A DNA stretch of 64,000 nucleotides from an uncultured Chloroflexia bacterium (GTDB taxonomy: Bacteria > Chloroflexota > Limnocylindria > Limnocylindrales > CSP1-4): NCBI GenBank assembly GCA_963748625.1, contig CAVVJT010000004.1:160001-224000 (forward strand), in the 5' to 3' direction. Each line of letters starts with the position of its first letter. The stretch's first letter is position 1. Below the pieces are notes generated by a model, which ran no database searches, was not told the origin of the DNA, and worked only from the letters and a program-made list of their open reading frames with translations. The position numbers and the translations under genes are program-made. Shown here in pieces: positions 45,197 through 46,489 of this stretch.

Positions 45197-46489
45197 TCAG
45201 CTCCCGGGCGCCCCCGAAGCCAGCACCCAGGTCACCCCGTCGGCGCCGTCGCGCACCTCGATCCCGGCGGCCGCGAGCCGGTCCCGGATCACGTCCGCCG
45301 TGGCCCAGTCGCGGTTGGAGCGGGCCGCCGCACGAAGGTCGAGAAGCGCCGCCACGAGCGGCTCGAGCGCGGTCCTCGGGTCCGCGCCGCCGGTCGCCGC
45401 CACCTCTCCCAGGCGCACGATGAGCGACCGGAACGTCGCGCTCGCGTTGTCCAGCTCGTAGCTGACCTCGCCGCCGCGGATCCGGGCCTCGATGGCGGAG
45501 TCCAGGTCCAGCAGCGCACCCACGGCGTCACGGATGGCGCCGCTGCCGAGGGCCGCGATGAATGCGCCCTCCAGCTCCGTCATCTCGTCGCGCATGGGGG
45601 CCGCCAGCCTGCTCGGCCGGGCCGCCGCCTCAACGCCCGCCAGCGCGGCCGCACGGACCGCCTCCGCCGACTCCCCTGCCGCGAGACCCCGGGCCGCCTC
45701 GCCGAGCGCCTCGATCGCGATCTCCGTCCCGGCCGCGAACCGTGTGCTGCGCCCGTCCACGCGGACGGTCACGCCGCCCAGGCCCACGACGCCCGCCGTG
45801 GCGGCCTCGAGGTCCAGCAAGAGCGCCGTGTGGCTGTCCACGCCGAGCACGAACGCGCCGTGGGGGAGCTGCTCCTCGAGCATTCGGAGGCGGCGCTCGC
45901 CCATGTAGCAGAAGCGCGTGTCGTGGTTGCCGCCTTCGGCGTTGTCGTAGTGGGGCACAACCGCCGCGCGCAGGCCGGTGGCGGCCCCGAGCAGGTCCAG
46001 CCCGGCGAGCCAGCGCGGGTCCTCGCCCACCTTGTAGATCTCGTACACGGGGATGGTCACGACACCCAGCGTGAGGGCGGCGGCGCTCGCCATCGTGAGG
46101 ACGCCGCCACCGGTCAGCTTCTCGCGCAAGGCGTCCGGGATCGGCCCGCCGGCCCACTGGTTGAGCGCGTAGCTGGGGCTTCCGGGGCCGGCCATCACGT
46201 ACCGGGAGCCGCGGATCCGGGCGACCGCCGTGGCCTCGGTCAGCGTGTCCACCTCGCGATGGCGGTAGGAGGCCACCTCCACCGGGTTGCCCACGCTGGT
46301 GCCGAAGAACTCAAGGGTCCGGGCGGAGAGCTCGTCGGCGTTCTCCTGGAACCCGTACGGCGTGTCCACGATGGCGGCAGGAACCGGGCCGGGCGCGCCG
46401 AACCGCTCGAACAGCGCGCGGTGGACCTTGGCCATGGCGGGCGCGGTCTCACCGGAGCCCATGACGGCCAGGATCCGGGGCGCGTTCAT
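45197..46489 (-). CDS. peptidase S51/cyanophycinase-like (class I GATase-like fold) hydrolase fused to a CysRS-type C-terminal domain
   Basis: [23 protein letters not shown] (nucleophile Ser), [15 protein letters not shown]; C-terminal [37 protein letters not shown]. Confidence 0.75.

Follow-up and report, generated by a model that had tools for sequence, protein, structure and literature searches.

A family of peptidase S51-type hydrolases with a cysteinyl-tRNA synthetase-type C-terminal module that may be directed to tRNA-Cys

INTRODUCTION

YbaK, ProXp, AlaX, and DTD are free-standing aminoacyl-tRNA deacylases or trans-editing factors. Enzymes of peptidase family S51, to which the cyanophycinases CphB and CphE and peptidase E (PepE) belong, are specialized for aspartyl substrates. 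Cysteinyl-tRNA synthetase (CysRS) recognizes tRNA-Cys in part by its anticodon, and the G34-C35-A36 anticodon ranks among the strongest CysRS identity elements according to a passage in PMC9976931. Here, we present an analysis of a gene at positions 45197 to 46489 (minus strand) of a 64,000-nucleotide stretch of DNA from an uncultured Chloroflexia bacterium (GenBank assembly GCA_963748625.1, contig CAVVJT010000004.1, positions 160,001 to 224,000), the whole of which we refer to as the window. Based on sequence profiles and structure prediction, the gene encodes a 430-residue protein in which a peptidase S51-type hydrolase domain precedes a homolog of the C-terminal part of CysRS. The original prediction, made from the letters of the window, had described this fusion and interpreted it as a tRNA-binding deacylase, trans-editing factor, or aminoacyl transferase. 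Our analysis confirms the observation and lends partial support to the interpretation.

RESULTS

Layout of the gene

The open reading frame (ORF) has 430 codons and is free of internal stops, and its start is supported by homologs that share the same beginning (M..RIL..MGSGE). The features of the gene are as follows.

45197 to 46489, minus strand: whole gene (430 residues plus stop), S51-like hydrolase domain, linker, and CysRS-type anticodon-binding module
45704 to 46489, minus strand: residues 1 to 262, predicted peptidase S51/cyanophycinase-like fold (profile, hhalign, Foldseek, VIA)
46085 to 46087, minus strand: Ser135 codon, aligned with the S51 nucleophile Ser of G-x-S-A-G-A
45950 to 45952, minus strand: His180 codon, aligned with the cyanophycinase His of D-Q-H-F
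45833 to 45835, minus strand: Ser219 codon, in the column of the S51 triad Glu (G-V-D-E)
45596 to 45703, minus strand: residues 263 to 298, two helices followed by the linker
45380 to 45595, minus strand: residues 299 to 370, helical part aligned with the CysRS helical bundle (about residues 332 to 407 of Escherichia coli CysRS)
45218 to 45379, minus strand: residues 371 to 424, CysS_C (PF23493) alpha/beta anticodon-binding domain
45284 to 45334, minus strand: R386, R390, W395, D399, and R402, equivalents of the anticodon-pocket residues of E. coli CysRS

The linker varies from 23 to 54 residues across the family and is poorly modeled, with a predicted local distance difference test score (pLDDT) below 50 at residues 291 to 296. 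Conservation was assessed in 120 close homologs and 150 cluster representatives, and Pfam matches were assessed in a 48-member family alignment. An ortholog in a genome of the same family (L006, G124:C29:9148-10443) carries one in-frame TGA, which may be a sequencing error or mark a pseudogene.

The CysRS-type C-terminal module

Residues 374 to 421 matched the Pfam domain CysS_C (PF23493) with an E value of 3e-8 and 34.1 bits (cutoff, 23 bits), and the same domain was matched by 42 of the 48 family members. When the entire genome was scanned with PF23493, only the true CysRS (46.5 bits) and the window gene (39 bits) exceeded the cutoff. The likeness to CysRS had been predicted for the last ∼45 residues; it stands and turns out to be longer. 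Positions 294 to 421 of the family profile align with residues 328 to 460 of E. coli CysRS, and a similar span aligns with three other CysRS structures (8qhp, 5.8e-14; 3tqo, 5.1e-12; 1li5, 6.5e-12; 6ujd, 2.4e-11), suggesting that the homology comprises ∼125 residues and includes both the helical bundle and CysS_C. Searching the PDB with phmmer also identified CysRS (3tqo, 1li5, and 6ujd; E values of 1e-5 to 4e-5), and the protein is 48% identical over 80 residues to the complete CysRS of its own genome, which is encoded on G000:C10 (L002:1498-2919) and matches tRNA-synt_1e (PF01406) with an E value of 5.6e-108. A separate model of residues 296 to 430 had a pLDDT of 88.8, and the best Foldseek match of the isolated module was the CysRS-tRNACys complex 1u0b_B. 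As the original prediction held, the 430-residue protein is not a synthetase: neither an H.GH nor a KMSK-type motif nor a match to tRNA-synt_1e (PF01406) was found in it, and because it has no Rossmann catalytic domain, HIGH, or KMSKS, it would be unable to aminoacylate.

An ungapped phmmer alignment (query residues 358 to 421 against residues 395 to 458 of the E. coli CysRS chain; offset, +37) pairs R386, R390, W395, D399, and R402 with Arg423, Arg427, Trp432, Asp436, and Arg439, respectively. According to a passage in PMC12684709, G34 of tRNA-Cys is hydrogen-bonded by Arg427 and Asp436 of E. coli CysRS and stacked on Trp432, and Asp436 and Arg423 are involved in water-mediated contacts to G34. 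Arg427, Trp432, Asp436, and Arg439 are also the four residues of the anticodon-binding domain that were mutated for better recognition of tRNA-Cys(CUA), as described in a part of PMC13449415. Among those of the 150 representatives that have a residue at the respective column, R386 is kept in 134 of 136, R390 in 141 of 142, an aromatic residue at position 395 in 133 of 139, D399 in 131 of 137, and R402 in 139 of 140. Consistently, a 44-sequence alignment of the 135-residue module has only seven invariant columns, and these include R386, R390, D399, and R402. The motif formed by the contact residues is even present in 28 of 30 loci from other families of the phylum that encode short forms of ∼350 residues without the helical bundle; the ORFs of the two loci without it have only 267 and 276 residues and may be cut by contig ends. 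That exactly these five residues are retained is our chief reason for thinking that the anticodon of tRNA-Cys is still read by the module. On this comparison of sequences, targeting to tRNA-Cys is well motivated.

Two further observations concern CysS_C-like sequences elsewhere. A family-2 glycosyltransferase encoded in the same genome (G000:C3:46047-46169; L003, 1447-2454, plus strand) has a weak CysS_C-like stretch at its N terminus, with E values of 0.028 against the 430-residue protein and 0.156 against PF23493 (below the cutoff), and lacks a counterpart of R402. Elsewhere in the phylum, other genomes have open frames of 809 to 1475 residues that match the query in its CysS_C part only (e.g., G142:C22:79296-79457, G142:C26:6927-7085, G164:C16:664998-665171, and G169:C35:3005-3349) and may represent further fusions of the module or overlong ORFs around cysS.

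The N-terminal S51-type domain

An AlphaFold2 model based on 48 sequences (pLDDT, 91.1; predicted template modeling score, 0.72) indicates that the N-terminal ∼262 residues have the peptidase S51 fold. Residues 1 to 262 of the model matched S51 structures in Foldseek with E values of 1.9e-13 to 1e-8 (6nqc, 1.9e-13; the cyanophycinase 3en0, 1.5e-11). In VIA comparisons with cyanophycinase, PepE, and 6nqc, Z scores were 20.1 to 25.8 (25.8, 23.7, and, for PepE, 20.1 to 21.2) with 211 to 237 aligned residues; sequence identity to the S51 structures is 13 to 21%. At the sequence level, positions 6 to 257 of the family profile matched PDB entry 6nqc, a "cyanophycinase-like exopeptidase," with an E value of 7e-11, and hhalign aligned the family with the canonical cyanophycinase of the same genome (probability, 83.5%; E value, 8.3e-6). 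The Pfam model Peptidase_S51 (PF03575; E ≤ 0.01) was matched by 19 of the 48 aligned family members (best E value, 2.3e-7); a scan of the whole genome with the same model and threshold returned five other loci and not the window gene.

The original prediction had noted S51-like motifs (MASAAA and VPHYDN) in the first ∼290 residues; the motifs and the fold hold, while the domain is shorter, at about 262 residues. In alignments with 6nqc and with the genome's own cyanophycinase, the counterpart of Ser135 is the Ser in G-x-S-A-G-A, and that of His180 is the His in D-Q-H-F. The nucleophile elbow of the 430-residue protein reads A-S-A-A-A, compared with G-x-S-A-G-A in S51. Ser135 is conserved in 120/120 close homologs and 147/150 representatives and His180 in 120/120 and 150/150, respectively. 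The title of a PDB entry among the Foldseek matches, [quoted passage not shown] agrees with the aligned Ser being the nucleophile. Law et al. are said to have assigned the S51 triad, in 2009, as Ser132/His174/Glu201. His174 of CphB, together with Arg178, takes part in substrate binding according to a passage in PMC12661447. At position 219, which corresponds to the Glu of G-V-D-E-x-T-A, the 430-residue protein and 118 of its 120 close relatives have Ser, and 134 of the 150 representatives have Glu.

Beyond the aligned Ser and His, Asp218, His220, Glu150, Lys153, Asp190, and Thr191 are, like Ser135 and His180, invariant in 120/120 close relatives. The motifs of the domain that are invariant across the family are GSGE (residues 11 to 14), GPGSP (101 to 105), S135-A136, PVYEIYKVG (147 to 155), PH180..N183, D190-T191, and G216.D218.H220. 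The catalytic His is followed by a conserved 14-residue insertion (AEGGxHDTRFCYxG) that, based on hhalign, cyanophycinase does not have. This dense set of family-specific invariant residues suggests an active, specialized site.

Size and distribution of the family

Of the 8000 candidates scored in a word-indexed search, 7956 matched; the 120 best are 72 to 87% identical to the query and all have PF23493. An exhaustive search of cluster representatives (clusters at 50% identity) gave 2920 matches at E ≤ 1e-3, of which 491 reached E ≤ 1e-30. At the latter threshold, a match was also present in 50 of the 201 genomes that were sampled from the window's phylum. Most of the remaining matches in the 201-genome sample concern the C-terminal region alone, many of them in frames of CysRS length (about 470 to 490 residues). 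The 491 clusters and the 50 of 201 genomes argue that the fusion is under selection.

Judged by record titles, the close relatives come from Chloroflexota, i.e., Limnocylindrales-type metagenome-assembled genomes (MAGs), and more distant members come from Dormibacteria, Acidimicrobiia, and Actinomycetes, including Kineosporia sp. A_224; most others are from MAGs. In the source databases, JGI among them, and in the Atlas, homologs are named only "hypothetical protein," "cyanophycinase-like exopeptidase," or, automatically, "cysteinyl-tRNA synthetase family protein." The original prediction knew of no characterized protein with this architecture, and we likewise found none among the Atlas cluster names and no paper on a combination of S51 and a CysRS module in the literature searched (judged by title and abstract). 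Thus, the family is large, uncharacterized in the searched literature, and drawn from Chloroflexota and Actinomycetota. Three longer fused forms of 754 to 2150 residues were among the matches; one (P0271) ends in low-complexity read-through, and for the other two, MFS or ABC Pfam domains are given.

The alpha/beta hydrolase partner and the neighborhood

Directly upstream lies a second gene of the proposed cassette.

46486 to 47388, minus strand: alpha/beta-fold hydrolase, upstream operon partner (GQSWGG nucleophile elbow; H276/D277)

The 300-residue alpha/beta hydrolase matches Abhydrolase_6 and Abhydrolase_1 (E value, 1e-22), its nearest solved relatives are generic esterases/amidases (e.g., 3kxp at 2.8e-16), and its invariant elements are HG..S.N, GQS.G, and H276-D277. 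The coupling of the two genes that had been predicted is borne out: the stop of the alpha/beta hydrolase gene overlaps the start of the S51 gene by ATGA, and in 57 of 80 related loci from both phyla an alpha/beta hydrolase gene is located directly upstream on the same strand (tblastn). In the phylum survey, it was upstream in 5 of 29 loci. In a database protein of 674 residues that is 82% identical to the window protein (P0007), the alpha/beta hydrolase and the S51/CysRS-module protein are fused in frame; the fusion could be real or result from a frameshift in that assembly. The predicted complex of the two proteins had a score of 0.00, which gives no verdict either way.

For the clustering of neighbors over the 80 loci, ORFs were prefiltered by a rule on GC content at the third codon position, by which 15 of the 80 target genes were themselves dropped. 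The alpha/beta hydrolase was the only conserved neighbor in these loci; the other clusters were heterogeneous and occurred in at most 15 of 80 (GFO/IDH/MocA oxidoreductase, ABC ATPase, GGDEF-EAL, DUF2017, CtaA, UbiA, ApbE, LysM-SLT, methylmalonyl-CoA mutase, and response regulator). No riboswitch or leader was detected upstream of the cassette (47300 to 47800) at E ≤ 1, and in 9 of the 80 related loci only tRNAs were detected at the gathering score. In 18 Actinomycetota loci (by title), a tRNA-Glu(UUC)-tRNA-Asp(GUC)-tRNA-Phe(GAA) cluster lies directly downstream on the same strand (L062, L071, L075, L077, L078, L084, L088, L091, L092, L094, L097, L100, L106, L107, L110, L113, L116, and L117). 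Either shared synteny or a functional connection could account for this adjacency.

There are two canonical S51 genes in this genome, with a cyanophycin synthetase gene adjoining each (G000:C6:48831-52638 and G000:C10:801790-805618; L033 and L034). These gene pairs are near-identical and encode cyanophycinases of 276 to 277 residues with GTSAGA, DQHF, and GVDEDTA, next to synthetases with 1117 to 1126 bits on TIGR02068. Because these two cyanophycinases lie beside synthetase genes elsewhere in the genome, the window gene is not the organism's ordinary cyanophycinase.

Close to the cassette, a divergent ORF of 1153 residues (47351 to 50812, plus strand) has a long Thr/Ser/Ala/Gly-rich, apparently repetitive sequence and perhaps encodes a surface protein. 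Downstream of valS (40886 to 42051, minus strand), there are genes for a 250-residue protein with a terminal CxxC...CxxC zinc-ribbon-like motif (weak Pfam matches) and a 129-residue Zn_ribbon_8 protein (E value, 2.4e-12) with a Gly/Ser/Asp-rich tail.

The valS T-box leader

The gene valS (42132 to 44879, minus strand) is located about 320 nucleotides downstream of the S51 gene on the same strand and is preceded by the following elements, which are outside the cassette.

44869 to 45106, minus strand: valS T-box leader (Stem I, 45000 to 45106; GUC specifier, 45015 to 45017)
44906 to 44917, minus strand: T-box motif of the valS leader, followed by the terminator (44879 to 44903) and U-tract

The valS T-box, which the original prediction had placed just downstream, is real. 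In a relaxed Rfam search, Stem I of the leader matched T-box (RF00230) with 37.7 bits (gathering score, 93) and an E value of 9.2e-7, and there was a separate 11.5-bit piece; at the gathering score, Rfam had no match in the leader. Its score is far below the gathering score because only Stem I aligns, and the leader may be a reduced T-box variant of the lineage. The remaining elements were recognized by sequence, i.e., GAA-C-GUC-G with the Val specifier GUC, the T-box motif GGTGGTACCACG at 44906 to 44917, and a terminator with 11 pairs and a U-tract (44903 to 44869). The terminator/U-tract overlaps the GTG at 44879 that starts the longest valS ORF; therefore, the true start is probably the ATG at 44852 (MTEQLAK...).

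The proximity of valS had also been taken as a hint to function, and a survey of linkage to aminoacyl-tRNA synthetase genes had been proposed. valS was found within 7 kb at 0/80 related loci and within 1.5 kb at 0/29 loci of the phylum survey. Thus, the adjacency is particular to this genome and appears incidental, and we rejected linkage to valS or its T-box as a functional clue. The T-box implies separate control of valS.

DISCUSSION

Our analysis suggests a function at tRNA-Cys. Specifically, we tentatively propose that the 430-residue protein is a tRNA-Cys-anchored serine hydrolase or transferase that acts on the acylated 3' end and forms a cassette with the alpha/beta hydrolase, a reading that we consider possible, if short of probable. 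In the same manner as its counterpart in CysRS, the CysRS-type module would dock on the anticodon of tRNA-Cys (GCA), which would place the tethered S51 domain at the acylated 3' end of the same tRNA, where Ser135 would attack the aminoacyl ester. If the acyl-enzyme were hydrolyzed, the protein would be a tRNA-Cys-specific deacylase or quality-control factor; alternatively, if the acyl group were passed to an acceptor, it would be an aminoacyl transferase. The alpha/beta hydrolase, usually cotranscribed, would serve the same pathway. In this scheme, we infer that tRNA is bound, which tRNA it is, that the substrate is an ester, and what the partner does.

A bolder version, which we regard as unlikely, is that the family represents an unrecognized class of tRNA-Cys-specific enzyme, in which an S51 Ser-His hydrolase with a borrowed CysRS anticodon reader removes or transfers the 3' acyl group. 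Based on the specialization of S51 enzymes for aspartyl substrates, we speculate that such an enzyme could clear Asp-like acyl groups on tRNA-Cys, e.g., oxidized cysteine (cysteine sulfinate), or selenocysteine. It would be quality control for the one synthetase without an editing domain. Otherwise, it may be a Cys-tRNA-dependent aminoacyl transferase that works together with the alpha/beta hydrolase.

Several observations weigh against a tRNA-Cys-anchored hydrolase or transferase. We know of no need of CysRS for trans-editing, so that a deacylase would have no obvious natural substrate. The S51 triad acid is replaced by Ser219 in the clade of the window gene, and activity there is thus not assured; moreover, "pseudo-CphB" (7uqv_B) is among the best structural matches (VIA Z score, 24.2). 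The Pfam scan suggested by the original prediction returned CysS_C above its cutoff, whereas Peptidase_S51 (PF03575) had no match in the 430-residue protein even at E ≤ 1. The protein is acidic throughout (isoelectric point of 4.98 for the whole protein and 5.40 for the N-terminal domain; family median for the latter, 5.53), and a basic surface to which the acceptor arm could bind is not obvious from its composition. Regarding the module, Pfam DALR_2 was matched by 0/48 members at E ≤ 0.01, although the family profile still aligns through residues 328 to 407 of E. coli CysRS. A VIA comparison of model residues 300 to 424 with residues 332 to 461 of 1u0b_B gave a Z score of 6.1 with a root mean square deviation (rmsd) of 11 Å, and the Foldseek match of the isolated module to 1u0b_B is marginal (E value, 1.3e-3; template modeling score, 0.35; rmsd, 15.7 Å); the assignment of the module therefore rests on the sequence profile. 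Finally, no linked gene for tRNA-Cys or an aminoacyl-tRNA synthetase was found (80 related loci; for valS, also the 29 survey loci), and in the 19 of 80 loci where tRNA genes follow directly downstream, these are for Glu/Asp/Phe (18 loci) or Lys (one locus, L074) and never for Cys.

Some of these observations could be accommodated if the module were a sensor rather than an anchor. GCN2 has a HisRS-like domain that senses uncharged tRNA, and by analogy the module could bind (uncharged) tRNA-Cys as a signal that regulates the cleavage of a small peptide or a storage polymer by an S51 peptidase; the alpha/beta hydrolase would serve the same catabolic route. The conserved anticodon-contact residues fit this alternative, as does the S51 fold, which, going by the structure titles among the matches, is so far known from peptidases only. 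Likewise, a linker of 23 to 54 residues and a dispensable helical bundle are better explained by a loosely coupled sensor than by a fixed geometry, and the N-terminal domain is acidic. However, no conserved neighbor for peptide uptake or storage was detected, with the other clusters in at most 15/80 loci, and the family-specific insertion and invariant residues are unlike those of cyanophycinase; all told, we consider a tRNA-Cys-sensing peptidase doubtful. It is also rather improbable, in our judgment, that the CysS_C-like module has been repurposed to bind another RNA, a protein, or a small ligand and that the enzyme is an ordinary S51 dipeptidase or amidase. The acidic protein, the lack of linkage to tRNA-Cys or aminoacyl-tRNA synthetase genes, and the marginal structural match to CysRS would agree with this possibility, and the weak CysS_C-like stretch in the family-2 glycosyltransferase (E value, 0.156) hints at contexts other than tRNA. 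Yet, repurposing is expected to entail the loss of the contact residues, and these are the most conserved positions of the module; furthermore, CysRS and the window gene alone reach the Pfam cutoff in this genome.

The S51 domain itself can be read in two other ways. In this clade it might be a dead pseudoenzyme, i.e., a scaffold or binding domain without the triad acid on a tRNA-binding module, as the Ser at position 219 in 118/120 close relatives and the similarity to "pseudo-CphB" could indicate. The invariance of eight residues of the domain, Ser135 and His180 among them, in 120/120 relatives is not what would be expected after a loss of catalysis, and a Ser-His dyad or an alternative acid might suffice; accordingly, we find a pseudoenzyme very unlikely. 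Least probable, and hardly to be expected, is that the protein is simply a cyanophycinase or a dipeptidase of the PepE type whose C-terminal extension is incidental. It shares their fold, and several homologs carry the JGI label "cyanophycinase-like exopeptidase," but the genome already has two canonical cyanophycinases beside cphA genes, the Pfam S51 model does not match the 430-residue protein, the His is followed by 14 residues that are inserted specifically in this family, and the extension is kept family-wide, with CysS_C in 42/48 members.

If the module docks on tRNA-Cys, as in the tRNA-Cys-anchored hydrolase or transferase that we favor, the protein would be the first tRNA-directed enzyme with an S51 fold and a rare case of a synthetase anticodon-binding module on an unrelated catalytic domain. 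How (mis)acylated or damaged tRNA-Cys is handled would then become a testable question; alternatively, the family could reveal a Cys-tRNA-dependent metabolism in two large, mostly uncultured phyla of soil and freshwater. Even if the module is a sensor or repurposed, the family illustrates the recycling of domains of aminoacyl-tRNA synthetases. With thousands of sequences, good conservation, and an operon partner that is itself conserved, the family is tractable. It is a good candidate for a tRNA-directed enzyme of a new kind.

Compared with the described systems, the protein shares with peptidase S51 (CphB/CphE and peptidase E; 3en0, 7uqw, 1fy2, 6a4r, and 6nqc) the predicted fold and the aligned Ser and His, and most of the family also has the G-V-D-E-x-T-A motif. 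It differs from S51 by the 130-residue CysRS-type module, which is in no solved S51 structure among the matches, by the 14-residue insertion, by the Ser that its clade has in place of the motif Glu, and by having no Pfam S51 score. With CysRS (E. coli 1li5/1u0b and the genome's own enzyme), it shares the homologous C-terminal ∼125 residues and the five anticodon-pocket residues; in contrast to CysRS, it has no Rossmann domain, HIGH, or KMSKS, and the modeled arrangement between the helices departs from that of CysRS (rmsd, 11 to 16 Å). YbaK, ProXp, AlaX, and DTD have another catalytic fold and, to our knowledge, carry no synthetase anticodon-binding module for tRNA-Cys, whereas the proposed logic, a hydrolase acting in trans on acylated tRNA, would be the same.

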